Below, one piece after another: positions 734 to 20,786 of a DNA stretch of 64,000 nt. Source of the DNA: Deltaproteobacteria bacterium. GTDB lineage: Bacteria; SAR324; NAC60-12. Numbering within the stretch: position 1 is the first letter of the stretch; every line of letters begins with the position of its first letter. Under the pieces are notes generated by a model. It was not told the origin of the DNA. It saw nothing but the letters and a program-made list of their open reading frames with translations, and searched no databases. Made by a program: the position numbers and the translations under genes. Where the stretch lies: positions 19,274-83,273 of the forward strand of contig JAYOTF010000011.1 in assembly GCA_038150265.1 (NCBI GenBank), written 5' to 3'.

Positions 734-1669
734 ATGCACTTTCGTTCCCCTCACCCCTTGCTCCTGCTTGGAGTCCTGCTGCTTCCGCATACTGCCTGGG
801 CAGTCCCCTCCTCAGCCTCAGCGACCTGGCCCGCCTGGGTCTGGCTCCTGCTGCTGCTGCTGACCGCCTTTGTGATTGGACTCTTCGGCGTCATGGCGGG
901 CATTGGCGGTGGCGTCCTCTTTGTTCCGTTGGTGAGCAGCTTCTTCCCCTTTCATATTGACTACGTCCGGGGCGCCGGGCTCTTCATTGCCCTGGGGAGT
1001 TCTCTCGCCGCCACGCCGTTCTTGCTGAGGCAGAACCTCGCCAGCCTCAAACTGGCCATGCCGGTGGCCCTGGTCGCCTCGGTCTTCTCCATTGTCGGAG
1101 CCCAGCTGGGCCTCTGGCTATCGGGGCTCGACCCGCGCTACGTTCAGGGGGCACTGGGCGTGACCATCATTGGCATTGGCGCCTTCATGCTGGGGGTCCC
1201 CCCCAACCGGCAGGAGAACCTTCCGGAACTCGACAGCCTGGCCAAACGGCTGGGGCTCTTTGGACACTACCGAGCCGACTCGGGTGAGCTGGCAGACTGG
1301 ACGGTGTTCCGGACGGCAAAGGGGCTGGTGGGGTTCATTGTGGTGGGGCTCGTGGCAGGAATGTTCGGGTTGGGGGCTGGCTGGGCCAACGTCCCGCTGA
1401 TCAACCTGGTGATGGGCGTTCCCCTGAAGGTGGCGGTTGCCACAAGCAACCTCTCCATTTCCATCGCATCTCCCGCGGCCTGGGTGTACCTCAACCAGGG
1501 GGCGGTGCTTCCGGCCCTGGTGGCGCCCTCCATGCTGGGGGTCATGTCGGGCTCCCTGATTGGCTCCCGCCTGCTCCCATACGTCCCCACCTCGGTCATC
1601 CGGAAGATGGTGATCGGCGTTCTCTTTCTCTCAGGTTTTCGCTCCCTACTGAAAGGATTCGGATGGTAA
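734..1669 (+). CDS. Sulfite exporter TauE/SafE family membrane protein
   Basis: Multiple TM segments; GVMAGIGGGVLFVP and duplicated AGMFGLGAGWANVP motifs; KVAVATS. Start taken at ATG 734 (701 is an alternative). Confidence 0.85.
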   Translation: MHFRSPHPLLLLGVLLLPHTAWAVPSSASATWPAWVWLLLLLLTAFVIGLFGVMAGIGGGVLFVPLVSSFFPFHIDYVRGAGLFIALGSSLAATPFLLRQNLASLKLAMPVALVASVFSIVGAQLGLWLSGLDPRYVQGALGVTIIGIGAFMLGVPPNRQENLPELDSLAKRLGLFGHYRADSGELADWTVFRTAKGLVGFIVVGLVAGMFGLGAGWANVPLINLVMGVPLKVAVATSNLSISIASPAAWVYLNQGAVLPALVAPSMLGVMSGSLIGSRLLPYVPTSVIRKMVIGVLFLSGFRSLLKGFGW

Positions 1670-2073
1670 CCTCGACTCCCTCGACTCCCATTGACGAGCA
1701 CCAGGAATATGCCACGGTCCTGACCTGGGGCAACCGCCTTGGGTTGCTCCTGCTCGTGCTCGGTTTTGTCAGCTACGTCACCGGCCTGCTACCGGGCACC
1801 CTCCCCCTGAACGAGTTGCCCCAGCTCTGGTCCCTCCCGCTTCCGGAATTCCTGGCACAGTCTCAAGCGCCTCAGGGCTGGAACTGGCTGACAGTCGCTG
1901 GTAACGGAGATGGCCTGGCCATGATGGGCATCCTCACCCTCGGGTGCATCACGGTGGTCAGCTACAGCTTCCTCGTGGTCCGGTTCCTCCGGACGCGTGA
2001 GACCCTGCGTCTGTGGATGGCATTGGGCGAGATCGCGGTCACTGTGGTGGCCGCTCTGGGGTGGGGGCTTTAG
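1663..2073 (+). CDS. DUF1634-like small membrane protein (usual TauE partner)
   Basis: Three TM segments, overlaps the TauE stop; LPQLWSLPLPEFL...GWNWL...GDGLAMMGI pattern. Confidence 0.7.
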   Translation: MVTSTPSTPIDEHQEYATVLTWGNRLGLLLLVLGFVSYVTGLLPGTLPLNELPQLWSLPLPEFLAQSQAPQGWNWLTVAGNGDGLAMMGILTLGCITVVSYSFLVVRFLRTRETLRLWMALGEIAVTVVAALGWGL

Positions 2074-2075
2074 GA

Positions 2076-2582
2076 CTAAAACGCCTCAGGGCAGTAGTGC
2101 GCGTCAATCGGCGCTCCGGCGCCAGAGACCTCTGGGCCAATTGGGCTCCAGCGCCGGTCTGGGCTCGCCAGAAAGGCAGCAAAATCGGCAGGCACGGATT
2201 CGGGCTCAATCCGGGTCACCCGCTCCAGGTCACACTCATACAGCCGGTACTGAACGATCCACCCCTGGTCCACATCAAGCGCCTGGAGCTGGGCCAGTTG
2301 AAAACGCCGGGGCGGTGTTCCAGCCAGCTCCAGGCTCCGGGAAACACGAGGATTGTCAAAGATGAGGCGGGTGACCGGCTGAAAGAAGAGGTGGGCCACA
2401 TTGTAGAGGTCGGGCTCCCGGATCTCCTGCAGCTCCACAAACTGCGGATGCTGCGCCTCCACGATCTGGCGCATCTGCTCTCCCCACTGCAAGCTGGTCC
2501 GGATGGCATACCCCCACCCCAGCACAATGAGGAGCAGGCTCACCACCTGAACGCGACGGTTGGAGAAGAGCCGGCGGATCAT
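2076..2582 (-). CDS. Hypothetical protein with a single N-terminal TM anchor
   Basis: RRLFSNRR followed by hydrophobic VQVVSLLLIVLGWGYAI; ATGA overlap with the channel gene stop. Confidence 0.65.
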   Translation of the reverse strand: MIRRLFSNRRVQVVSLLLIVLGWGYAIRTSLQWGEQMRQIVEAQHPQFVELQEIREPDLYNVAHLFFQPVTRLIFDNPRVSRSLELAGTPPRRFQLAQLQALDVDQGWIVQYRLYECDLERVTRIEPESVPADFAAFLASPDRRWSPIGPEVSGAGAPIDAHYCPEAF

Positions 2583-5083
2583 TTGCGCATGAATTGCTGA
2601 ACCCGTTGCTTGCCCTTCTCCAGCAGGTGGCTCAGCTCCTCCTGAGGCGCTCCCAGCAGGTGGGAAATCTCTCCCAGCAGCTTCTGCTCTTCCGGAGCAA
2701 AGTCTCGGTCCACCACCGCAATGCTCAGCAGCTCCTCGAGCACCAGGGTGCGATCTTCGTCGCTGATGTCGATCGGCTCCACCTCCGGATGCCGCCCCAA
2801 CAGGATCATCTCTTCGAGCTCCTGAACGTGTTCCGGATTGTCCAGCATCCGGACGGCGCCATGCAGGAAGGTCCGCTCATGCAGGTCGATGGTGTCGTCG
2901 GCCATCACCATGGCGACCACGGCCTTGGCGTACCAGAAGCGGTGCTCGGCATCAAAGTGCTGGAGCAGCTCGGCGCTCAGCTTCGGCCCTTCTTCCTCGT
3001 TGAGCGTCTCCTCCATCTCCCGGAGGACCCGAATCGACTTGAGGACCTTGTGGGCCTGTTCGTTGCCAGAAAGCGCAGACTCCCGGAACCAGTAGTAGGC
3101 CTCCTCCCGGTTCTTCGGCACCCCCTGGCCATTGAAGTTCATGATGCCCAGGTTGTACTTGGCCCGGGCGTGATCCTGAATGGCCGCCTGATGGAACAGC
3201 CGATACGCCTCCCGGAGGTCGCCTCCGGACTTGGTCAGCTCCACCGCCTGCCGAAACCAGTCCTCCGCCTCAGTCGGGTTCTGTGCTCGGACCGCTGCGG
3301 CCTGGGTCATGCGATCAGCGGCTTCATCGGCAAGCAGGGTGTGGTGCTTCTCAAAGAAGCTCTGGTTGCGGATGGTCTCCTCCAGCGCCAGGAAGATGAG
3401 GCTGTCTCCCGCATGCACCATCAGGTCCGGGTGCGGATTGACGATCAACTTGCGGTTGTGGCCACGGAGCAGGCCAACCGGCAGCTGATTCGACTGGCGC
3501 TTCACATTCAGCACCGTCTCCACCCACTTCAAGGAGGCCCAGGAGCTGGAAAGCCGCCGGACAAAGAGGCTCTGGACGTGGGCCTCTTCCGAGAGGATCT
3601 GGGTCACCAGCGTCCCGTACCCTTCGTTGGTCGCCGTCTGAGAGAGGATCGGCGCAATCAGCTCATCCGCCTGCAGGCAGAAGTCGCACCCGACCTTCAT
3701 CAGCTGCACATCAAAATCCGGCTCCCGGTAGCTCGCAATCGTAAAGATCTCGCCGCCGGTTTCCTGCTCCAGACGCAGAACGGCCATCAGGGTCTGTCCA
3801 TCGTGCTGGTGGTCGATGAAGGCCACCTTGGCCTCGGTTGCCCGGGCCTTCCGGAAGGAGGCTTCGCTGTTGGAAACGCCTTCAATCCAGTCCACCTCCA
3901 GGCCTTCCGGAAAGTGCTCCAGGCGGGGGCTTTCCGTGATCACCACCACCCGTTCCCGGGTCCGTGCCTTCTGCAGCTCCCTGAGCAGGCGTTCAATGAA
4001 CATCAGGTTATCGGAGCTGATCACCAGGTGTCCCTCCACCCGCAGGTCTTCCATTCCGGAAATTTCGAGAGCGTGCTCCTCCTGGTCTCCCTTGGGACGA
4101 GTGGCCGGGGGTTGGAGCTGCAGCACCTGTGTGCCCTTGGGCAGCACATGATCGGCCGGAGGATTCACCAGCACCATTTCATCCTCAAACAGCCCGATTG
4201 GCATGACGCCCTGCTCGCTCTTGAGGTGAGCAATCACGTCAATCCAGGCCTTGCCTTCGAGTTCCGGAGAGAGTTCCTGATTGACCAGTCGGTGCCCCTT
4301 GGGCTGGTTGACCACCTCATGCACCCATGCGGGCCCTCCCTGAGACCGGTAGGCCTGCACCATCAGGGGCACATAGACCTCATACGGATCCAGCGCATGG
4401 TCGCACCCAATTTCCTGGAAGTGCTTGCGGTTGCTCTCACCGGTGTACTGCGCCATCGTCACCACCTCCCCGTTGCTGAGGCTCTCCAGCTGCAGCACCG
4501 TCATCAGGGTCAGGCTGTTCTCCTGGTAAGAGACGTATGCAATCTTGGCCTTTTCGGCAGACGCCTTGCGCAGGATGTCAATGCTGTAGCTCTCTCCAGA
4601 GATCCAGGGGAGCTTCTTGTAGCGTGTGGTGATCAGGGGGTGTTCGTCTCCCGGACCAATCAGAGCGACCTTGTTTTGCTCCAGAAACGACTGGTTTTGT
4701 GCCAGGATTTCTTCCATGAAGGTGGGGCTGTCGGAACAAATCAGCACATGATCCTTCTCGGAAACCGGATCCAGCCCACGTTCGCGTCCGCTCTTGAACT
4801 CCTCAAACTTGGCTGTCACCAACGAGACAATGATGGAGAAGTTCACAATCCCGGCCGCCATGACGAGGAAGGTGAAGATCCGCCCCCCCACCGTGATGGG
4901 GGCCATGTCTCCATATCCGACGGTGGTGATGGTCTCCACCGTCCACCAGAGGGCATCAAAGGGGGTGTTGAAGGTGCTGTTTTCGTCTCCCGTCAGGATG
5001 TATTCAAAGAAATAGATCCCGAGGGTGCTGGTGAGCAGCAGCAGCGGCAGCATCACCAAAAAGATAAATCGCGCTTTGTTCAT
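2579..5083 (-). CDS. 2-TM potassium channel with tandem RCK (TrkA-N/C) domains, a Sel1-like repeat and a C-terminal TerB-like domain
   Basis: Pore DALWWTVETITTVGYGDMAP; two Rossmann-like RCK repeats (KDHVLICSD...LRKASAEKAKIA; GHLVISSD...FRKARATEAKVA), each followed by xPxGL...VNP; Sel1 AKYNLGIMNFNGQGVPKNREEAYYWFRESA; TerB-like MVMADDTIDLHE and IAVVDRDFAPEE. Confidence 0.9.
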   Translation of the reverse strand: MNKARFIFLVMLPLLLLTSTLGIYFFEYILTGDENSTFNTPFDALWWTVETITTVGYGDMAPITVGGRIFTFLVMAAGIVNFSIIVSLVTAKFEEFKSGRERGLDPVSEKDHVLICSDSPTFMEEILAQNQSFLEQNKVALIGPGDEHPLITTRYKKLPWISGESYSIDILRKASAEKAKIAYVSYQENSLTLMTVLQLESLSNGEVVTMAQYTGESNRKHFQEIGCDHALDPYEVYVPLMVQAYRSQGGPAWVHEVVNQPKGHRLVNQELSPELEGKAWIDVIAHLKSEQGVMPIGLFEDEMVLVNPPADHVLPKGTQVLQLQPPATRPKGDQEEHALEISGMEDLRVEGHLVISSDNLMFIERLLRELQKARTRERVVVITESPRLEHFPEGLEVDWIEGVSNSEASFRKARATEAKVAFIDHQHDGQTLMAVLRLEQETGGEIFTIASYREPDFDVQLMKVGCDFCLQADELIAPILSQTATNEGYGTLVTQILSEEAHVQSLFVRRLSSSWASLKWVETVLNVKRQSNQLPVGLLRGHNRKLIVNPHPDLMVHAGDSLIFLALEETIRNQSFFEKHHTLLADEAADRMTQAAAVRAQNPTEAEDWFRQAVELTKSGGDLREAYRLFHQAAIQDHARAKYNLGIMNFNGQGVPKNREEAYYWFRESALSGNEQAHKVLKSIRVLREMEETLNEEEGPKLSAELLQHFDAEHRFWYAKAVVAMVMADDTIDLHERTFLHGAVRMLDNPEHVQELEEMILLGRHPEVEPIDISDEDRTLVLEELLSIAVVDRDFAPEEQKLLGEISHLLGAPQEELSHLLEKGKQRVQQFMRK

Positions 5084-5379
5084 GGCATCAGGCTTTTGTG
5101 ACGTTGGATGCCCCTCTGGGTCAACGGCAGGGGGCAGGGGCCCGGACCTGCCTCGTCAGCCTGTGCCTCCGGGGTCTCGGAGGGCACACTCACGTGAGGC
5201 AGCGTCTCAATGGGCGCAGGACCTCTTCCCGATTTTCTTGGGCAACAGGGGAAGGTGCTGTTGTTCTGCACTTCTGCAGAAAGGGCCTCAGGGAGGCCTT
5301 CAGGTCTCGTCTGTTCCAACCAGGAGCGTTGGAACCTGGGGGCACGCGGGAAGTGTCGGCCAGGGGACGGGGTGTTCAT
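5080..5379 (-). other. Possible 99-aa Pro-rich ORF, or structured leader upstream of the channel gene
   Basis: ORF stop overlaps the channel ATG (ATGA), but no recognisable domain; region contains several inverted repeats. Confidence 0.25.
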
Positions 5380-5505
5380 GGGCCTGCAGGGTTCATTCGG
5401 AGCCCACGGGCTCCTCCGGATGGCTCCGTCCAGCGGTTCGGGCCATGGCCGACCACCGAGTCCGGATCACCAACCCGCTTCTGCAGCTTCAGCGCCTGGG
5501 CGGGC

Positions 5506-7026
5506 TCAGTCCAGGTCTCCGAGCGTGATGATCTGATCCGAAGGTGCCAGGACAAAGGAGCGTTCCAGGCTGGGACACCAGTCAATGCGACCGGTTTCCG
5601 TCGACTCCTCGCCATAGAGAATGCCCAAAAACACCTCGCCTTGCGTCTGAGCCGCCAGCACCAGGTCTGCCGTCTCCAGAGAAGCGGTGCTTTCGGGGAA
5701 GAGCGTCTCCACGGTTCGGGAGCGTACGCCCTGGGTTCGGTTTTCCACCAGTTGGGTCCAGAACGGGCTTTGCTCCGGATTCAGCACGGCCCGCAGCAGC
5801 ACCCCCAGGAGCAGGGACTGCGACGACGTCGCCTGAACGCCCACTCGGGCATACGCCGCTTCTTGCCCCCACTGGCGCACCTCCACCACCCAATCCGGAC
5901 GCGCGTCCAGCTGCCGGGCCTGGCGCTGGAGTTGCCGGCAGAGGCGCCACGCCTGAGCCCCTTCATCAGGATTCAGGATCAGCACCGAGGCATACTGATT
6001 CAGCTTCAGAGCCCGGAGGATTTTCGGATCCTGCACATCCAGGGAGCGGACCTTCAGGTTCAGGCCTGGCAGCTGGTGCTGGAGGTCCTGAATGGACTCG
6101 GCGGTCAAGGGCACCCCGGGCTCGGTGAGCACATGCAGAATGGAGCCATCCGGAAGCAACTCGGCAAGCTGTGTCAGCAGAGGCTCGGCCGTACGGGTCC
6201 AGCGCACCACCAGGTGCACCCCCGGACGCAGCACCGGATCCTGCGGCTGCAGACGCGGCACCTGCGAGGTCGCTGGCGTTGCACGAAAATCCAGGGGCGT
6301 TTCGGCCGGCATCCAGATCAAGAGCTCATCCTCGCCCTGAAGCTCGGTGGTGGGCGGAGGCGCAATGAAGATCCGGCCATCCGGAAAGCGAATCCCCACG
6401 GGTTGCCCCTGATAGGCCCGCAGCTGGGCCTCTCCAAAGCGCATGCCCTGCCAGCCGTCTTCCGGAGCATAGCGGCGCAGGTCTCCGGTGTGGCAAAAGC
6501 CCTCCAGGCACCGGGCCTGAAAGTCCGGACGCAGCGAGTTCGCCATCAGCCACCCCTGCAGCTCGCCTTCCACAAAGACGGTGGCATCCGGAAGCCACTC
6601 CAGCACCTGCTGGCGTCCTTCCTCAGTTTCCATCACCACCCCGACGCGTCCCAGGTCGGCGACGGTCAGGATGCTGGCGAGGGTCAGCAGGGTTTCGTCT
6701 TCCGAGGCCTCCGGCAGCACCAACACGCCGACCGGCCCTGCAAGCGGCAACGACTGCAGCAGGTCGCCATCTGACACCTGGCCCGGGATGACCTGTACCG
6801 ACACCGGAAGGTGCGTCTGCAGAGCAGCCACGGCGGCAGACACTTCCAGGACGTCTGTTTCCGGGAGCAGCACAATCTGCTCCAACTCCAGGTTGAGTTG
6901 GCTGAGCCAGCGAAGGAGGCTCACCTGGCGCAGGCTTCCGCCGCAGATCAACAGGCTCTTCGGGGGACGCTGCAGGGCCTCCCAGTTCTCTGTCGCCGTG
7001 ATCGGCTCAAACGGTTCCAGTTCCAT
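5506..7026 (-). CDS. Soluble tandem-RCK protein resembling the CASTOR/POLLUX (DMI1) gating-ring region, with no TM segments
   Basis: KSLLICG start; QPVGIRFPDGRIFIAPP; LRALKLNQYASVLIL; C-terminal LVLAAQTQGEVFLGILY...APSDQIITLG recalls CASTOR/POLLUX C-termini; no long hydrophobic helix. Confidence 0.65.
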   Translation of the reverse strand: MELEPFEPITATENWEALQRPPKSLLICGGSLRQVSLLRWLSQLNLELEQIVLLPETDVLEVSAAVAALQTHLPVSVQVIPGQVSDGDLLQSLPLAGPVGVLVLPEASEDETLLTLASILTVADLGRVGVVMETEEGRQQVLEWLPDATVFVEGELQGWLMANSLRPDFQARCLEGFCHTGDLRRYAPEDGWQGMRFGEAQLRAYQGQPVGIRFPDGRIFIAPPPTTELQGEDELLIWMPAETPLDFRATPATSQVPRLQPQDPVLRPGVHLVVRWTRTAEPLLTQLAELLPDGSILHVLTEPGVPLTAESIQDLQHQLPGLNLKVRSLDVQDPKILRALKLNQYASVLILNPDEGAQAWRLCRQLQRQARQLDARPDWVVEVRQWGQEAAYARVGVQATSSQSLLLGVLLRAVLNPEQSPFWTQLVENRTQGVRSRTVETLFPESTASLETADLVLAAQTQGEVFLGILYGEESTETGRIDWCPSLERSFVLAPSDQIITLGDLD

Positions 7027-7138
7027 GGGTTCAGCGCGGGAAAGAGGGTTGATTCAGGATTGGAGAAAAGTTCTCAGGTCTGGGCAGGGTGAGGACTCTA
7101 AAATTAAGGCCCTTTTCTAGCGAAACCATTCCGGATAA

Positions 7139-8257
7139 TCAAGCTTTGTCACGGGGGAACTGATGAACCCGCGGAATTCGCTCGGTCAGCCCGGTCAGAA
7201 TCTCGTAGGCAATGGTCCCGGTTCGAGACGCCAGTTCCTCAGCCGTCACCTCCTGCGCGCCTTCCTGACCGATCAGCGTGACCCATTCCCCCACTTTGGC
7301 CTCCTCCGGAGTGGCAATCATGAGCTGATCCATGCACACCCGCCCCAGGATCGGGACGCGTTCCTCCCGGAACAGAACCGGCCCGCCATTGGAGAGGTGG
7401 CGTCGGTAGCCATCGCCATACCCGACCGGAAGCGTGGCCACTGGAGTCGGCTCCGTTGCCTGCCACGAGGCGCCATAGCTGACGGTTGCTCCCGGAGGCA
7501 CCGTTTTGCTAAAGGACACCTGCGCCTTGAGTGAAAGCGCCGGCTGAACCGGAACCGTCCGGTGACTCAACGGGTCGGGGTAGACCCCATAGAGCAGCAG
7601 CCCGGGGCGGACGCAGTCGAAGTGCGCGTCCGGAAAGTGCAACACGCCTCCGGAGTTGGCCATGTGCCGCATCGGCAGAGGCTGCCCCAGTTGCTCCCAA
7701 ACCCTTGATACGGCCTCAAAGGCTTCCAGCTGCAACCGATTCATCGGGTGCTCCGGGTCGTCTGAGCAGGCAAAGTGCGAGTAGAGGCCCCGGACGTCCA
7801 CCCAGCGCGAGCGCGCCACCGCCTCCAGCAGAGGCCGGGCCTCTGCCGCCCGCACGCCGGTCCGTTCCATGCCGGTGTCAATCTTGAGCTGAACCGGAAG
7901 TCGGGTCTGGTGTTTCTGTGCCAGCGCCTCCACGGCTTCCAGCATCTGCAGGTTCCCCAGGCTGAAGTCGAGGTGGTGGGTGTAGAAGTGGGGGAGCTGG
8001 TGAGGCTGGTGTCCGCCCAACACCAGGATCGGCGTGGTGATTCCAGCGGTCCGGAGCGCCATGCCTTCTTCCACCAGCGCCACAGCCAGCCACTCCACCC
8101 CCAGGTGTTCGTACCAGCGAGCCACCTCCACCAGGCCATGACCATAGGCGTTGGCCTTGACCACCGCCATCACCTGAGGCGCCCGGACGTGCTGGCGGAT
8201 TGCCCGCAGGTTCGAGGCCAGGGCCGCCATGTCAATGAACGCTGCAGCAGGACGCAT
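7139..8257 (-). CDS. alr: Alanine racemase
   Basis: PLP motif MAVVKANAYGHG, KIDTGMER, SHFACSD, VSYGASW, GYGDGY, GRVCMDQ. Confidence 0.97.
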   Translation of the reverse strand: MRPAAAFIDMAALASNLRAIRQHVRAPQVMAVVKANAYGHGLVEVARWYEHLGVEWLAVALVEEGMALRTAGITTPILVLGGHQPHQLPHFYTHHLDFSLGNLQMLEAVEALAQKHQTRLPVQLKIDTGMERTGVRAAEARPLLEAVARSRWVDVRGLYSHFACSDDPEHPMNRLQLEAFEAVSRVWEQLGQPLPMRHMANSGGVLHFPDAHFDCVRPGLLLYGVYPDPLSHRTVPVQPALSLKAQVSFSKTVPPGATVSYGASWQATEPTPVATLPVGYGDGYRRHLSNGGPVLFREERVPILGRVCMDQLMIATPEEAKVGEWVTLIGQEGAQEVTAEELASRTGTIAYEILTGLTERIPRVHQFPRDKA

Positions 8258-8880
8258 CAGCCGTGCTGACTGTAAAAGCCGAAGATGGCGGCACAGAACA
8301 GCTCAAAGTTCTCCACCTCGGCATCTTCAGCAATGCGCTCCAGGGTTTCCAGGAACGGATCAAAGCCGTAAAACTGCCGAAAGATTTCGGGAATGCGCAC
8401 CCGGATCCTTTGCTCTTGCAGCAGGGGCACCAGTTCATTGACAATCAAGGGAAGGGCTTCTGGCGATTCCCGCAACCGCCGCAGGGTGTGCTGGAAGAAG
8501 CCCTGGACACGGGTGGAGAGGCGCTGCGGATTGCCCGGAAGCTGCGACGAGGCCGGAAACTTCCCCGGCTTGCGCGGAGGCTGCCCCAGCGCAGTGGAGG
8601 CGACCTTGCGTTTGCGGTGGGGGGAATCGGTCGACACCACCCCCAGCCCATAGGCGCCTTCGGCTTCGAGCTTCCGGAACAGCTGGCTCGCTTTCTCGGC
8701 ATTGAGCTCACTCTCCGCATGCGGCGGAGCGATCGTGCGTCCCAGAAACGGATTCTTCCGATTCCGGTACACGCCGTACGTCTCGGCACCAAACTCGTAG
8801 GGCAGGGGCTGCACTCCCTTGATTTTTCCTCCCTCCTGATTGAGGATGAGGGGCACTTTCTCTGAAGGCTTGTCGCTCAT
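8257..8880 (-). CDS. Hypothetical protein
   Basis: 207 aa; TGATG coupling to alr; plausible codon usage; no family recognised. Confidence 0.7.
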   Translation of the reverse strand: MSDKPSEKVPLILNQEGGKIKGVQPLPYEFGAETYGVYRNRKNPFLGRTIAPPHAESELNAEKASQLFRKLEAEGAYGLGVVSTDSPHRKRKVASTALGQPPRKPGKFPASSQLPGNPQRLSTRVQGFFQHTLRRLRESPEALPLIVNELVPLLQEQRIRVRIPEIFRQFYGFDPFLETLERIAEDAEVENFELFCAAIFGFYSQHG

Positions 8881-9004
8881 GATTCAGTTTGGTTCAACAG
8901 CATCCATCTCCCCCTCTGTGGGAAAGTGTGTCACAGTTCTTGCTCGTGGTGTTGGGCAACCTTAAGTTCACCCTCGGCCTACAACGCATGACCCCGGCGA
9001 AACC

Positions 9005-11152
9005 ATGTCGCTAACGAGATTCTACCAGCAAGCGAAAATCCTGCCATTTCTTCTCACCAGTCTTCTGGTCCTCCCCGGGGCTTTGGGCGCACAGGTTGCG
9101 GATTATGCGCAGACGTGGAGCACCGCCCGGGCCGCATTTGTGGCTCAGGAGCCTGAACAGGCCCTGCAGGAGCTGACCCCGCTGCTGCAAAGCGATGCCC
9201 CCTTCACCTGGCAACAGCGCGGGTGGATGCTCGCCGGCAAGAGCCTCCTGGCGCTCGGACGGCCTCAGGAAGCCAAGCAGTGGTTTGAAAAGGTCTCTCT
9301 TCCCGAAAACGAGCATTACGACCTCTGGCTATACTATCGTGCCGAAAGTCACCTGCAGGCTCAAGAGTACGAGCGGGCCTTTTACCTCATGGAGCTGCTG
9401 CTCCAGCACCCGCGTTACGAATCGTACCTCCCCCGCATCCGCCAGTCCCTGGCCCAGCAGGCTCAGGCGCCGGCTGCAGGGACGTACCTGCTGAGCCTGC
9501 TCAACAAACCTGAAAATCACGCCGAGTCCCTGCTGGAAGACGACCGCATTTACCGGCTCTACCTGAAGGCGGCCGAGCAAGCCGGACAGCCCATTCCGGT
9601 GGAACAGCAGCTGCTGGCCTGGAAGAATCCGGGAAGCGAAGCCGCTGCTCGTCAGACCCAGCAGCTCCTGGAGCAGCAGAACACCCCCATCAGCGATGCG
9701 GCCGTCCGGGAGCGTGTGGATGCCCTCCGGCGCCTGCGCGCCCGAGACTACCTCCTGGAGCAACTGCCGCTGCTGATGAAGGGACGGTCTGCCGAGCTGC
9801 AAACGGAACTCGGCAAAATCTACATCCGGACCCTCTTCTACTCGCGGCAGTACTCCAAGATGGTTCGGCATTACCAGCGCAAGGACTTCCGCAAGCGCTA
9901 CGCGGTTCCCGAGGAGACCGAGTACTACTGGATGATGCGGGCCTACCAGCGCCTGAAGCGGACCAAGGACGCCCGCTTCCTGCTCTACAAGCTGGAAGAG
10001 AACCATCCCAACTCCCCCCTCCTGCCCCTGGGTTATGAGCACATGGCCTCCTACTACCAGGGTCAGCGAGAAGCCGAAAATGCCGCCTTCTGGTGGCGCC
10101 GCTTCCTGGAGCGGGTTCCCAAGCACCGCGACCGCGAGGGCATGCTCTGGAACCTGGCCTGGCACCACTCGCGCGGCAAGGGCTTCCTGACCGCCCTCAA
10201 GTACCTGGAGCAGGGCCTTGAAGAAGAAGCGCTGGGGCCCGAAACCCGAGGCAAGTTCCTCTACTGGAGCGGACAGTTTCACCTCAAGCTTCAGCAAAAA
10301 GAAGAAGCCCAGAAGCGCTTTGTGTCCCTCGCCGACACCCTGCCCAACACCTACTACGGCCTCCGGCTCCGGCTGGACCAGCCCAACCTCTTCCCGGCCC
10401 CGCAGCCTCCCAAGGCCCTGGAAGAGCTGGACCTCCAGCTCAGTGAGCGCGAAGCCTCGTTCCTCCAGCACTGCGAGTACCTCTTCGAGGTTCTGGAGTC
10501 GGACCTTGCCGTCTGGCGCCTCCGCCAGGCCTTCCGTGACAAGCCCAGCCAGGCCCTGGTGCTGGAAACCGGAATGGTGCTGCAGCGGTATCACGAGTAC
10601 CACGCGCTTCAGAAGCTGGTTGCCGGCCGTTACATCCAACGCCTGAAGTCGCAGGACGTAGACGGCCAACCCGTCTGGACCATGGTCTTTCCCCGCCCGT
10701 ACTGGGAGCAGGTGCAGCACTATGCTGAAGACGCCGGCATTGACCCCTACTGGGCCCTTGCCATCATGCGGGAAGAGAGCCTCTTTGACCCTCAGGCCGT
10801 CTCCTCGGCCAATGCCATGGGCCTCATGCAGCTCATGCCCGCCACAGCGAAGGACGTGGCCAGCTGGAAGAACATCGACCTGCGCATTCCGGATGACGTC
10901 TTCAATCCTCACATCAATGCCCGCCTCGGCACGAGCTACCTCGGGCACCTCGCCAGTCGGTTTGAGGATGAACTCATCCTCACGGCCGGAAGCTACAACG
11001 CCGGGCCCGGAAACATGGGCAAGTGGCTCAAGCGCATCCGCTTCCACTCCCTCGACGAGTTTGTCGAAGACATTCCCTTTGAAGAGACGCGCAACTACGT
11101 CAAGCGCGTCTACCGGACTTACCAGCTCTACAAGCAGCTCTACCAAGGCTGA
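9005..11152 (+). CDS. slt: Soluble lytic murein transglycosylase (Slt70-like; TPR-like superhelix plus SLT domain)
   Basis: Signal peptide; TPR-like repeats; SLT motifs IMREES, AMGLMQLMPATA, SYNAGPG, ETRNYVKRV. Confidence 0.92.
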   Translation: MSLTRFYQQAKILPFLLTSLLVLPGALGAQVADYAQTWSTARAAFVAQEPEQALQELTPLLQSDAPFTWQQRGWMLAGKSLLALGRPQEAKQWFEKVSLPENEHYDLWLYYRAESHLQAQEYERAFYLMELLLQHPRYESYLPRIRQSLAQQAQAPAAGTYLLSLLNKPENHAESLLEDDRIYRLYLKAAEQAGQPIPVEQQLLAWKNPGSEAAARQTQQLLEQQNTPISDAAVRERVDALRRLRARDYLLEQLPLLMKGRSAELQTELGKIYIRTLFYSRQYSKMVRHYQRKDFRKRYAVPEETEYYWMMRAYQRLKRTKDARFLLYKLEENHPNSPLLPLGYEHMASYYQGQREAENAAFWWRRFLERVPKHRDREGMLWNLAWHHSRGKGFLTALKYLEQGLEEEALGPETRGKFLYWSGQFHLKLQQKEEAQKRFVSLADTLPNTYYGLRLRLDQPNLFPAPQPPKALEELDLQLSEREASFLQHCEYLFEVLESDLAVWRLRQAFRDKPSQALVLETGMVLQRYHEYHALQKLVAGRYIQRLKSQDVDGQPVWTMVFPRPYWEQVQHYAEDAGIDPYWALAIMREESLFDPQAVSSANAMGLMQLMPATAKDVASWKNIDLRIPDDVFNPHINARLGTSYLGHLASRFEDELILTAGSYNAGPGNMGKWLKRIRFHSLDEFVEDIPFEETRNYVKRVYRTYQLYKQLYQG

Positions 11153-17371: not shown

Positions 17372-18382
17372 ATGAACGGAAACGACAAACCGATTCGGAT
17401 GCAAGAGGTCGCCGAGTATGCGGGGGTTTCCATCATGACCGTCTCGCGGGTGCTGCGGAAACCGGAGAAGGTGGCAGAGGGTTCACGCAAGCGGGTGCTG
17501 CAGGCGATTGACGCCCTGGGGTACGTTCCCGACCTCACCGCCGGCGCGCTCTCGTCGAAGCGCAGCCACTTCATTGTGGCGCTGATTCCGATGATGAACA
17601 GCTCCCCGTTTGCCGACACGATGCAGAGCCTCTCGTCGGTCCTCAACGAGGCCGGTTACCAACTGCTCATCGGCAGCACCGACTATGCGCTTGAGAAGGA
17701 AGAGTCGCTGGTCCGGACGCTGCTGGGGCACCGCCCGCAGGGCATGGTTCTGACTGGACGGCAGCACCACCCAGAGGTGTACAAGCACCTGAAGCGCTCT
17801 CAGATTCCGGTGGTGGAGATCTGGGACCTCCCTGACGAGCCCATTGATGGAGCCGTCGGCTACTCCAACTTTGATTGCGGGGTCTGCCTGACCGAATTTC
17901 TGCATGCCAAGGGGCGGCGGAAGATCGGGTTTGCGCTTGCAGAGATGCGAGACGATGACCGAGGCGAGCAGCGCCTGCAGGGCTACCTCGCAACCGTTCA
18001 GCGCCTGGGGCTTCCGGAGCTGGTGGTGCGGGCCGGGCAACCGCCGGTGACCATGGAATTGGGAGGCCGCCTGCTGCAAGACCTCCTCCAGCAGCATCCG
18101 GAAGTCGACTCGGTGATCTGCGTCAGTGACACCCTGGCGATTGGGGTGCTCTCGGAATGCCGGCAGCAGGGACGGCGGGTGCCGGAAGACCTGGCGGTGG
18201 TGGGATTTGGCGACTTCGAAGTGGCCCAGCACACCTCACCTCCGCTGACGACCATCCGGGTGTCCGGGCACGAAATTGGCCGGCAAACCGCACAGCTGCT
18301 GCTGAACCAGATTCAGGCCGGATCCTCGCCCCGCTCCAAAATTGATGTGACCTTTCAGCTAATTGAACGAGGCTCCACCTGA
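17372..18382 (+). CDS. LacI family transcriptional regulator (GntR/IdnR-like subgroup)
   Basis: HTH IRMQEVAEYAGVSIMTVSRVL; LGYVPD..AGALSS; IPVVEIWD; VVGFGD; PPLTTI. Confidence 0.93.
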   Translation: MNGNDKPIRMQEVAEYAGVSIMTVSRVLRKPEKVAEGSRKRVLQAIDALGYVPDLTAGALSSKRSHFIVALIPMMNSSPFADTMQSLSSVLNEAGYQLLIGSTDYALEKEESLVRTLLGHRPQGMVLTGRQHHPEVYKHLKRSQIPVVEIWDLPDEPIDGAVGYSNFDCGVCLTEFLHAKGRRKIGFALAEMRDDDRGEQRLQGYLATVQRLGLPELVVRAGQPPVTMELGGRLLQDLLQQHPEVDSVICVSDTLAIGVLSECRQQGRRVPEDLAVVGFGDFEVAQHTSPPLTTIRVSGHEIGRQTAQLLLNQIQAGSSPRSKIDVTFQLIERGST

Positions 18383-18419
18383 GCCCCGGATTCCGCTTCC
18401 CCTTTGCAGGAGATTGTTC

Positions 18420-18881
18420 ATGAGTTACGAAAAACGCCTTCAGGAACTGGGCATCACGCTTCCGGAAACCCCCACTCCCGTGGCCAACTACGTCCCCGGG
18501 GTCATCACGGGCGACTTGCTGTTCCTCTCCGGACAGGGCCCCCGGAAGCCGGACAACACCTTTGAACTTGGCACCATCGGCGCAGACGTCAGCGTGGAAG
18601 AAGGCTACCAGCATGCTCGCCTGACGGGGCTCTTCCTCCTCTCTGCCGCCCGGAGCATCCTGGGCAGCCTCGACCGGGTGGACCAGGTGGTGAAAATTCT
18701 GGCAATGGTCCGTGCCACCCCGGATTGCCCCGACCAGCCCAAGGTGGCCAATGGTCTGTCAGACCTGATGGTGGAAGTCTTTGGAGACGCCGGACGGCAC
18801 GCCCGTTCCGCTGTGGGCATGGGGTCGCTTCCGAACGGCATGACCTTCGAGGCCGAGGCCATTTTGCGCATCAAGCCATAA
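18420..18881 (+). CDS. RidA/YjgF/YER057c/UK114 family protein
   Basis: LGITLP..P.PVANYVP, LFLSGQGP, ANGLSDLMVEVFGDAGRHARSAVG; RBS GGAGA before ATG 18420. Confidence 0.9.
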   Translation: MSYEKRLQELGITLPETPTPVANYVPGVITGDLLFLSGQGPRKPDNTFELGTIGADVSVEEGYQHARLTGLFLLSAARSILGSLDRVDQVVKILAMVRATPDCPDQPKVANGLSDLMVEVFGDAGRHARSAVGMGSLPNGMTFEAEAILRIKP

Positions 18882-18890
18882 CCGACGGGC

Positions 18891-20786
18891 ATGAGCTCCT
18901 TCTCCTTCTCGGCACGCGTCACCTCCGCCCAGCAGCTGGCCTGTACGCTCCGCAACCACAGCTCAGCGGCCTACCAGGGGTTTCAGCTTGGCCTCAGCCT
19001 GGTCACCGGCGGGGTGGCGGTTTCCGGATGTCGCCTCACGCGTCAGGTGGGAGGCTACTGCGAGGTCGCTCCCGAGCCAGAGGGTCCCCTTGCTCCCGGA
19101 GCCACATGGGAGTTTGTCCTGGCCTACCACGAGGCGGGTTACGTCCCCTTCAACCAGTCGTGGGGACCACAAGGCGTCCACCTCCTCACAGCGCAAGGAG
19201 AGGCCCTTCCGGTGGAAGCCCACCCCCTCGAGTTTCCGGACGTGCCCCCGTTTCCGCAGCTGGACGTGACTCCAGAGGCTCCCGAGCTTCCTCTGATTCC
19301 GCATCCGGAATCCTGGAAGCCGACGGGCACAACCTGCTCGCTTGCTTCCGGAATCACCGTGCTGGAGCCGCTTCCGTTTCCCGACGTTCCGGAGGCCGTG
19401 GACGCGCTCGCTCGACGGTGCGGGTTCTCCCCCCTGCAGGCGAGTTCCCCTTCCGCCTGCCCGCTGACGCTGCACCAGGATGCCTCGCTCGGTCTGGAGG
19501 CCTACTGGCTTGAGATTCACCCGGATCGGCTGGAACTCGGCGCCTCCGGACGCACGGGCGCGCTGTATGGCGGGCTCACCCTGCTGCAGTTGGCCGAAGC
19601 GACCCACCGGAGCCTGCCCTGCGGGCGCCTGGAAGACCAACCTCGGTTTTCGTGGCGTGGGCAGCACCTCGATTGCGCCCGGCACTTCTACGAAGTCGAC
19701 ACCCTCCTTCGGGTGCTGGACCTGATGGCCCTGCTCAAGCTCAACCGCTTCCACTGGCACCTGATTGATGATGAGGCCTTTCGGTTGGAGCTCGAGGGCT
19801 TTCCCGAGCTGGCCGCCCAGACTTCTGCGCGGGGGCATGGCTGTGTGGTGCCCGGCGTGTTTGGCGGCGGCGCCGGTCCCACCGGAAGGGCCTACTCGGC
19901 GGCCGACGTCGAGCGGGTCCGGCAGCACGCCCAGACGCTCGGCATTGAAGTGATGCCGGAGGTGGAGATTCCCGCCCACGCCTGGGCGCTCCTGCAGGTG
20001 TTTCCCGAGCTGCGGGATCCGGAAGACACCAGCCACGAGGTGTCGGTGCAGTGTTACGCGGAAAACGCGATCAACCCGGGACGCGCAGAAACCTGGCGGT
20101 TTTTGGAGAAGCTGCTTCCGGAAGTGCACCAGCTCTTCCCGGATGGCTGGATTCATCTGGGATGCGACGAGTTGCCGCCCGGGACCTGGGAGCGCTCTCC
20201 GGCGGTTGCACGACTCAAGGCCGAACACGGCCTGCACACCACCGAAGATGTTCAGGAGTGGACCATGCAGCGTGCGGCCGCCCTGCTCCAAAAAGCCGGG
20301 GCGCGGGTGGCGGCCTGGGAAGAAGCGGCCCGCGGGCAGCACGGAGGCATCGGTCCGGACACCCTGCTGTTTTCCTGGACGGGACAGGGGCCCGGACTTG
20401 ATGCCGCCCGCCGCGGGTATTCCGTGGTGATGTGTCCGGCTCCGCACACCTACTTCGACCTGGCCCAGACCGCTCATCCTTCGGGGCGAGGCATCAACTG
20501 GGCGGGGACCGTGGGGCTTCGGGACGCCCTGGAGTGGCAGCCGGTTCCTCCGGAGGAGCCTGAGCTGGAAGCCCGCATTCAGGGCGTGCAGGGGCAGCTC
20601 TGGTCAGAGACCATTCTGGACGATCGCATGGTGGAGGCCCTGCTGGCCCCCCGGATTCTGGCCCTGGCCGAAGTGGCCTGGTGTCCGGAAGCACGCAAGC
20701 GGGCGTTCCCGGAGTTTGTGGGAGCCGCCCAGGCGTTTTTACCCTTACTTTCCAAGATGAACTGGGAGTCTCACCCCCTCGTCTGA
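18891..20786 (+). CDS. Glycoside hydrolase family 20 beta-N-acetylhexosaminidase
   Basis: DQPRFSWRGQHLDCARHF, NRFHWHLIDDE, PEVEIPAH, catalytic HLGCDE, GVQGQLWSE; no signal peptide. Confidence 0.93.
   Translation: MSSFSFSARVTSAQQLACTLRNHSSAAYQGFQLGLSLVTGGVAVSGCRLTRQVGGYCEVAPEPEGPLAPGATWEFVLAYHEAGYVPFNQSWGPQGVHLLTAQGEALPVEAHPLEFPDVPPFPQLDVTPEAPELPLIPHPESWKPTGTTCSLASGITVLEPLPFPDVPEAVDALARRCGFSPLQASSPSACPLTLHQDASLGLEAYWLEIHPDRLELGASGRTGALYGGLTLLQLAEATHRSLPCGRLEDQPRFSWRGQHLDCARHFYEVDTLLRVLDLMALLKLNRFHWHLIDDEAFRLELEGFPELAAQTSARGHGCVVPGVFGGGAGPTGRAYSAADVERVRQHAQTLGIEVMPEVEIPAHAWALLQVFPELRDPEDTSHEVSVQCYAENAINPGRAETWRFLEKLLPEVHQLFPDGWIHLGCDELPPGTWERSPAVARLKAEHGLHTTEDVQEWTMQRAAALLQKAGARVAAWEEAARGQHGGIGPDTLLFSWTGQGPGLDAARRGYSVVMCPAPHTYFDLAQTAHPSGRGINWAGTVGLRDALEWQPVPPEEPELEARIQGVQGQLWSETILDDRMVEALLAPRILALAEVAWCPEARKRAFPEFVGAAQAFLPLLSKMNWESHPLV

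Follow-up and report, generated by a model that had tools for sequence, protein, structure and literature searches.

The 64,000-nucleotide window analysed here (positions 19,274 to 83,273 of contig JAYOTF010000011.1, termed C11 below, of the SAR324 assembly GCA_038150265.1) carries a minus-strand locus of three genes, which encode a soluble tandem-RCK protein (P0001), a potassium channel (P0002) and a small membrane protein (P0003). These are three real genes that are found together only in one small lineage. What is new in this locus is P0001, the product of an intact, selected, motif-degenerate gene for a CASTOR-type ring without a pore, confined to two sister species. Judged by its alignments and its predicted fold, P0001 comprises all of the tandem-RCK cytoplasmic portion found in CASTOR/DMI1-type channels and lacks the membrane module of ~135 amino acids (aa). 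With modest confidence, we read the locus as one autonomous channel with two recent, lineage-specific neighbors. Searches covered the window genome itself (3.39 Mb in 87 contigs) and 60 related genomes, comprising other members of the same bacterial family (36), members of the same class (5) and a sister family, f2 (19). The original prediction for this DNA, made from the letters alone, had described three co-oriented genes, and that description stands: all three open reading frames (ORFs) are intact, Pfam places the domains of P0002 in the predicted channel-RCK-RCK-Sel1-TerB order with the TVGYG filter preserved, and the hydropathy script, AlphaFold2 model and Foldseek search agree on P0001 as a tandem-RCK protein of CASTOR/POLLUX type without a transmembrane segment. 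P0003 likewise has the single hydrophobic segment described for it (residues 13–31, hydropathy script), and its start shares the tetranucleotide ATGA (2579–2582, read from the sequence) with the stop of the channel gene, with which it would be co-translated.

P0001 is nearly invisible to sequence libraries. No Pfam family matched it above the cut-off, which for Castor_Poll_mid is 26.7 bits where P0001 scores 15; NCBIfam returned no match for P0001 or P0003, PADLOC returned none for any of the three proteins, and nothing among the PDB sequences matched P0001 better than E 0.5. Its relationship to CASTOR is traced through a paralogue in the same genome. Contig C32 encodes a 658-aa CASTOR-like protein with N-terminal hydrophobic segments that matches both Castor_Poll_mid (E 6.9e-27) and LjCASTOR (E 1.1e-54), and residues 25–504 of P0001 align to residues 136–655 of this paralogue (25% identity, E 4e-27 by BLASTP). 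Since the alignment begins at paralogue residue 136, P0001 would correspond to the whole cytoplasmic part, starting from the first Rossmann strand. The AlphaFold2 model of P0001, built on a 31-row alignment, has a predicted local distance difference test score (pLDDT) of 83.7 and a predicted template modelling score (pTM) of 0.81. Its top Foldseek matches are structures of the LjCASTOR ring (6o7a, 6o6j and 6o7c) with template modelling (TM) scores of 0.78–0.81 over ~511 columns; the MtDMI1 ring (7vm8) scores 0.79, the BK/Slo rings ~0.6, and TrkA and GsuK ~0.45. The comparison with CASTOR and GsuK structures that the original prediction had suggested thus finds an RCK fold, with CASTOR at 0.81 and GsuK at ~0.45. 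Neither the hydropathy script nor the model indicates a transmembrane segment in P0001, and its sole marginal hydrophobic stretch (residues 113–132) is a Rossmann helix and strand in the model. The open frame is 515 aa long in the window, where the preceding gene, for alanine racemase, ends 112 bp before P0001, and 538 aa in the orthologue of the sister species (genome G002). No detached CASTOR-type pore module was found elsewhere in the genome by tblastn with the first 140 residues of the paralogue. P0001 and the neighboring channel P0002 have no significant BLASTP match to each other (E 0.11).

The G002 orthologue, also 506 aa long and 86% identical, is the only one among the 60 related genomes. 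With dS at 0.8–1.2, near saturation, and the ratios correspondingly rough, dN/dS against G002 was 0.074 for P0001, 0.080 for P0002 and 0.126 for P0003, compared with 0.12 for the alanine racemase gene (alr), 0.043 for the adjacent 207-aa ORF and a span of 0.02–0.12 for the flanking genes. The GC content at third codon positions (GC3) of the three genes is 0.76–0.79 (0.77 for P0001), within the usual range of the genome, so that composition gives no sign of recent horizontal transfer. Because of its low dN/dS and native GC3, P0001 is a maintained native gene under purifying selection and not a decaying fragment.

P0001 has lost motifs that most of its homologues keep. According to the structural report on LjCASTOR (PMC6697748), Ca(I) is liganded by D442, Ca(II) by E493 and by backbone atoms including that of E552, and Ca(III) by A342, S345, D553 and D554. 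When mapped through a HMMER alignment of the C32 paralogue to 6o6j (chain index +309), the ligands given there fall on three motifs of the family (ANES, GxE(F/I)Y and A(E/D)DDS), which are retained by most homologues in a 31-row MAFFT alignment. At the position of ANES, P0001 reads QLNL and its G002 orthologue QLEL; at that of (E/D)DDS they read PAET and PAHV, respectively. The position of E493 is ambiguous in P0001, being Asp182 by BLASTP and, shifted by one, Leu183 by MAFFT. As D442 and D444 are both missing from the C32 paralogue, Ca(I) is not shared by the whole family. CASTOR-type Ca2+ sensing is probably no longer present in P0001; the predicted fold has been kept, and the ring probably as well. 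In the tree, P0001 and its orthologue occupy the longest branch, on which the midpoint root also lies and which puts over 8 changes per column between them and every other row; the tree therefore neither places P0001 nor shows its origin.

Among CASTOR-like proteins, the pore-less form is rare. A search of 1.84 billion representative proteins gave one close cluster, that of the G002 orthologue, with the next match at E 2e-20; of its 90 weak matches, the long ones align from about their residue 310 to residue 183 of P0001, and therefore carry an N-terminal extension. For P0001 and P0003, word-index searches turned up nothing beyond their orthologues in the sister species. P0001- or CASTOR-like matches are present in 22 of 61 genomes (own included), in frames of 612–688 aa; the exceptions are the orthologue pair and a frame of 271 aa that contains a stop. 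Two wider scans were made. The metagenome scan, seeded with proteins P0055 and P0022, yielded 73 loci, of which 52 near-complete ones were analysed and 21 partial ones left out; 51 of the 52 hold ORFs of 617–700 aa with 2–4 hydrophobic segments, and at one locus no ORF was found. The genome scan, seeded with P0059/P0098, yielded 80 loci, 78 of which encode proteins of 600 aa or more that have hydrophobic segments at the N terminus, the exceptions being L133 (frameshifted) and L141 (440 aa). In all, 129 of the 132 CASTOR-like loci sampled are pore-bearing. The original prediction had allowed that P0001 would be a truncation if its homologues were all pore-bearing. All detectable homologues bar one orthologue do have the pore, but the gene is intact and selected, and P0001 is best described as a derived pore-less form rather than a broken truncation. 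Among the 12 of 14 titles listed by a literature search on the CASTOR gating ring, RCK domains and Ca2+, none pointed to a bacterial pore-less form, no search having been aimed at stand-alone CASTOR-type rings; the Pfam name Castor_Poll_mid retrieved one unrelated paper only.

Two side observations concern these scans. The seeds P0022, P0055 and P0059/P0098 are 522–544 aa long, begin with Met and have no hydrophobic N terminus; they may be further pore-less forms or mis-called starts. One carries the source label of a regulatory subunit of KhtT type and another comes from a Vicinamibacterales metagenome-assembled genome, and the loci of the seeds themselves were not recovered by the scans. At L133 (5480–7503), from Streptomyces smyrnaeus DSM 42105, a frameshift splits a full-length CASTOR-like gene, leaving the pore module in a 189-aa frame (5480–6049) that overlaps the start of a 510-aa RCK frame (5971–7503); either a pseudogene or an error in sequencing could explain this.

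P0002 is best read from its sequence as a predicted autonomous two-transmembrane K+ channel with a TVGYG filter and a Sel1-TerB tail. Pfam matches in it are Ion_trans_2 (E 5.8e-16, residues 16–93), Slo-like_RCK (residues 110–190), Castor_Poll_mid (E 6.1e-8, residues 238–326), TrkA_N (E 2.2e-13, in two stretches, one at 365–467), TrkA_C (residues 534–571, under its cut-off), Sel1 (E 1.3e-12, residues 639–674) and TerB (E 8e-8, residues 774–817). The TVGYGD motif begins at residue 54 and is flanked by hydrophobic segments at 3–30 and 62–93 (hydropathy script), and tblastn detects an internal repeat. The nearest solved sequence for the pore and the first RCK domain is that of MthK (E 4e-18, residues 43–326), and P0002 has the features of RCK-gated two-transmembrane K+ channels, namely a filter with the K+ signature and an RCK domain that follows immediately on the inner helix. 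On the model of GsuK and BK, four P0002 chains with two RCK domains each would form their own eight-RCK gating ring.

Of the 36 other genomes in the bacterial family, 20 have a one-piece full-length relative of the channel, defined as a match that covers the query from residue 3 to residue 824 or beyond, at 39–90% identity; a further relative (G010) matches in two pieces within one 842-aa frame, which brings the full-length count to about 21, and another is cut by a contig end (G024). In three genomes of the family itself (G004, G006 and G008) and in the five of the same class, the best matches cover the channel-RCK part only (to about residue 585), and those in the 19 genomes of sister family f2 are single domains only. 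The window genome has a second copy on contig C64 with 48% identity. The filter of this C64 paralogue (L037, 413–2947) reads TVGFG, and an ADP-ribosylglycohydrolase gene (2994–3995) begins 47 bp after its coding end. The tail of P0002 is strongly conserved among channel relatives, and occurs as well on three bestrophin fusions in genus g12 (49–50% identity). A third species of the window genus, G001, has a second channel-Sel1-TerB paralogue (C8:14931–17396), with a TrkH gene (17616–18914) on the same strand 220 bp further on; near the G001 channel orthologue, a 146-aa ORF that by eye looks like a stand-alone TerB-like domain (L039, 5639–6079, plus strand) runs convergent to it and 28 bp from its end. 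Literature searches found no paper joining TerB, potassium channel and Sel1, none on SAR324 and a potassium channel, and, for the TerB domain with an ion channel, only a preprint on defence systems.

The original prediction had cast P0001 as a trans-acting ring, and P0003 as an auxiliary subunit, for this channel. Comparative genomics gives this proposal little support. The three genes do recur together in the sister species G002, with 82–90% protein identity across the trio, but this is one genome of 60, and synteny with so close a species carries little weight. In G001 (96% complete) the channel, at 71% identity, stands alone in an unrelated context, and the genome has no match to P0001 or P0003. 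At ten other channel loci (L024–L033, of which the nine from L025 to L033 are from other genera), tblastn found no match to P0001 or P0003 within flanks of up to ~1.5 kb, and neither neighbor was present where the ORFs were read (L024, L025, L031 and L033, with flanks of 1.3–1.5 kb in the other genera), so that the channel is alone in G001 and in three further genera. Because the channel family stood without either neighbor in the relatives read, P0002 would not need P0001 or P0003.

Between the P0001 gene and the start of P0002 lies a 422-bp spacer (5084–5505), which the original prediction did not mention and which may carry signals of its own. Aligned with G002, the spacer is identical in 233 of 456 columns (51%), and it contains three islands, at 5334–5369, 5242–5264 and 5222–5233, that are ~92% identical (33/36, 22/24 and 11/12). 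The islands are unique in the genome and lie 140–285 nt upstream of the channel start, and the first is flanked by CCTGG...CCAGG. Rfam gave nothing near the gathering score over 1500–9200, and a consensus scan gave no promoter and a chance number of terminator-like sites, with neither a consensus promoter nor a terminator in the spacer. A 99-aa ORF at 5080–5379 was rejected as a gene, as it has no family and the gaps in its alignment to G002 are not all multiples of three. The islands are possibly a promoter, an operator or a leader of the channel gene; separate regulation of the channel gene is plausible because islands of ~92% identity lie within a spacer of 51% identity.

P0003 is an orphan, with a predicted membrane helix at the N terminus followed by a small domain that is beta-rich in the model and predicted to be periplasmic. 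It has no family in Pfam, NCBIfam or PADLOC, its model (pLDDT 74.8) has no Foldseek match at E <= 0.001, and the ESM Atlas gave no usable match. Homologues were found in two of the 60 related genomes, G002 and G020. The G020 relative is a 172-aa protein of 36% identity with the same two Cys residues and an N-terminal helix; its gene follows that of a 270-aa protein and overlaps the start of a 338-aa gene (the overlapping pair at L042, 494–2016) whose product looks by eye like an efflux membrane-fusion protein or adaptor, and the channels of G020 are on other contigs. With its sole further relative coupled to another gene, P0003 is probably not a dedicated channel subunit.

A second setting in which CASTOR-like and Sel1-TerB-tailed genes adjoin was found in genus g12, where three genomes (G019, G023 and G013; L034 43–6081, L035 861–5878 and L036 676–6144) have an ion-channel gene cluster in the order pentapeptide-repeat/Ion_trans_2 (343 aa), CMD-family protein, pore-bearing CASTOR-like protein (657–674 aa) and Bestrophin_2-Sel1-TerB fusion (566 aa). 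Only 8–9 bp separate the last two genes in two of the species, against 581 bp in the other. The CASTOR gene of this cluster is an orthologue of the C32 paralogue (56% identity) and not of P0001, and the bestrophin of the window genome (on C5) has no Sel1-TerB tail. Near 153 CASTOR-like loci of other phyla, a hidden Markov model of the tail gave no match in 8617 frames.

We therefore weighed several accounts of the locus. If the fold is a guide, P0001 would most likely form a free soluble tetrameric ring and, by analogy with TrkA, KtrA and KhtT, would act in trans on some partner. The most obvious candidate for that partner is the neighboring channel, a possible but doubtful choice for which the one item of support is adjacency. 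In its fuller form, with the free ring docking in trans on the Sel1-TerB tail or under the channel's own ring and tuning its gating, and with P0003 as an auxiliary subunit, the proposal is unlikely. It is favored by the co-orientation and order kept in both the window genome and G002, the ATGA coupling of P0003, the purifying selection on all three genes, the independent CASTOR-like/bestrophin adjacency in g12, and the nature of Sel1 repeats as protein-binding modules; against these stand the trio's presence in only one of the 60 related genomes, the channel without partners in G001 and three other genera, its complete tandem RCK, the 422-bp spacer with conserved islands before it, the coupling of the G020 relative of P0003 to the 338-aa gene instead, the pore-bearing, C32-type nature of the g12 CASTOR gene, and the lack of a Sel1-TerB tail near the 153 CASTOR-like loci of other phyla. 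A still more ambitious version, in which the P0001 ring sits in trans on the tailed channel as a two-tier assembly, P0003 resembles a beta subunit, and a general signalling link joins CASTOR rings to TerB tails, is rather improbable; if it held, the CASTOR-type genes beside the K+ channel here and beside the bestrophin in g12 would both reflect that link.

P0001 might instead co-assemble with, or regulate, the pore-bearing CASTOR-like channel of C32 in the way that soluble RCK domains join MthK. The two are paralogues with the same fold and domain order, and the genome keeps one pore-bearing copy, but they share only 25% identity, the branch of P0001 is very long, each gene has a contig of its own, G001 has no match to the P0001 query, and, according to PMC6697748, a tandem-RCK chain already completes the ring as a tetramer; we regard this as very unlikely. 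Somewhat less remote, though distinctly unlikely, is that P0001 has left ion transport and now serves as a soluble binding or scaffold protein of Rossmann type, with its gene transcribed together with the alr operon or downstream of it and adjacent to the channel by accident. The loss of conserved ligand motifs, the extreme divergence, the position 112 bp after alr as opposed to 422 bp before the channel, and the variation of the genes after alr in every other genus examined all fit such a change, but the whole two-RCK architecture is kept (TM score 0.81 to the gating ring), purifying selection is strong over the full length, and no library indicates another function. Service to an orphan TrkH was rejected, as the genome has both TrkH and a tandem TrkA.

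The reading of an autonomous channel with two recent neighbors, which we favor, is itself opposed by several observations. The adjacency and co-orientation of the trio are kept in G002, the one other genome that has these genes, and the ATGA overlap argues for co-expression of P0003 with the channel. The first RCK domain of P0002 itself scores as Castor_Poll_mid, so mixed assemblies with P0001 would not be structurally absurd. By the listed coordinates, 5 of the 22 genomes that have a CASTOR-like match, and 2 of 12 genera, place a CASTOR-type gene beside a Sel1-TerB-tailed channel gene, which is more than expected by chance, although this was noticed post hoc. Finally, the transmembrane calls for the proteins here come from a crude hydropathy script.

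The features of the locus are listed in Table 1. Downstream of the trio and convergent to it, Pfam identifies TauE together with a weak, below-cut-off match to DUF1634. On the upstream side, the block of the 207-aa ORF, alr and an SLT/TPR transglycosylase gene, the last of which is divergent, is whole in G001 and G013, and the pair of the 207-aa ORF and alr is present in G005. The block is kept across genera, and the genes that follow alr differ in each other genus examined.

Table 1. Features of the P0001-P0002-P0003 locus (positions in the window)
Feature	Position	Strand	Evidence
P0003, 168-aa orphan single-pass membrane protein (predicted)	2076..2582	-	ORF, ATGA overlap, hydrophobic segment, dN/dS
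P0002, predicted K+ channel of 834 aa (tandem RCK, one Sel1 repeat, TerB domain)	2579..5083	-	Pfam, MthK match, relatives, dN/dS
P0002 C-terminal tail, Sel1 (residues 639-674) and TerB (best stretch 774-817)	2633..3169	-	Pfam
Two tandem RCK domains of P0002, residues ~110-330 and 345-590	3314..4756	-	Pfam; tblastn internal repeat
P0002 pore module, residues 16-93	4805..5038	-	Ion_trans_2, motif position, hydrophobic segments
TVGYG filter of P0002, residues 54-58	4910-4924	-	Motif position
Spacer between the P0001 and P0002 genes, 422 bp, three islands conserved with G002	5084..5505	-	G002 alignment
P0001, 506-aa cytosolic tandem-RCK protein with predicted CASTOR/DMI1 gating-ring fold, without pore	5506..7026	-	ORF, BLASTP, AlphaFold2/Foldseek, dN/dS
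Alanine racemase gene (alr)	7139-8257	-	Ends 112 bp before P0001
207-aa ORF, no Pfam family	8257-8880	-	Overlap-coupled to alr

The pore-less, selected copy shows that a CASTOR/DMI1-type ring can be released from its channel, and P0001, being small and soluble, would be a convenient protein in which to study what a ring of this kind binds after the LjCASTOR-type Ca2+-ligand motifs have been lost. Should P0001 act on the neighboring channel, it would represent a new way of layering the regulation of K+ channels and provide a handle on the Sel1-TerB tail; should it not, the locus would be a lineage-specific curiosity of two uncultivated species. P0001 shares with LjCASTOR and MtDMI1 two tandem RCK domains in the same arrangement, with homology that can be traced through the bacterial paralogue, but identity to the plant proteins is only 17–19%, and the plant chains carry a membrane pore that the P0001 chain lacks; it departs from the CASTOR family in the pore, in the Pfam gathering score and in the Ca2+-ligand motifs. 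P0002 has in common with tandem-RCK K+ channels of the GsuK type (PDB 4gx0) a two-transmembrane TVGYG pore followed by two RCK domains, but GsuK has no Sel1-TerB tail.

The nearest functional analogues of a free RCK ring are TrkA, KtrA and KhtT, pore-less cytosolic proteins whose RCK rings gate in trans a membrane protein encoded separately; TrkA is a tandem as well. P0001 resembles them as a cytosolic RCK protein without a pore, but its fold matches the TrkA structures 4j9v, 4j9u and 4g65 less well (TM scores of 0.43–0.45), it has neither the GxGxxG nucleotide motif that characterises these proteins (the position reads ICGGSLRQ) nor a Pfam TrkA_N match, and its neighbor is a channel with its own pair of RCK domains, whereas theirs is a ring-less transporter. 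MthK obtains its soluble RCK by internal initiation; this free unit has the same sequence as the tethered one, and the ring is incomplete without it. In both MthK and the present locus, a free RCK unit stands beside one tethered to a pore; the free unit of MthK is a copy of the tethered unit, whereas P0001 is a tandem RCK of an unrelated lineage (E 0.11 to P0002) with a gene of its own.

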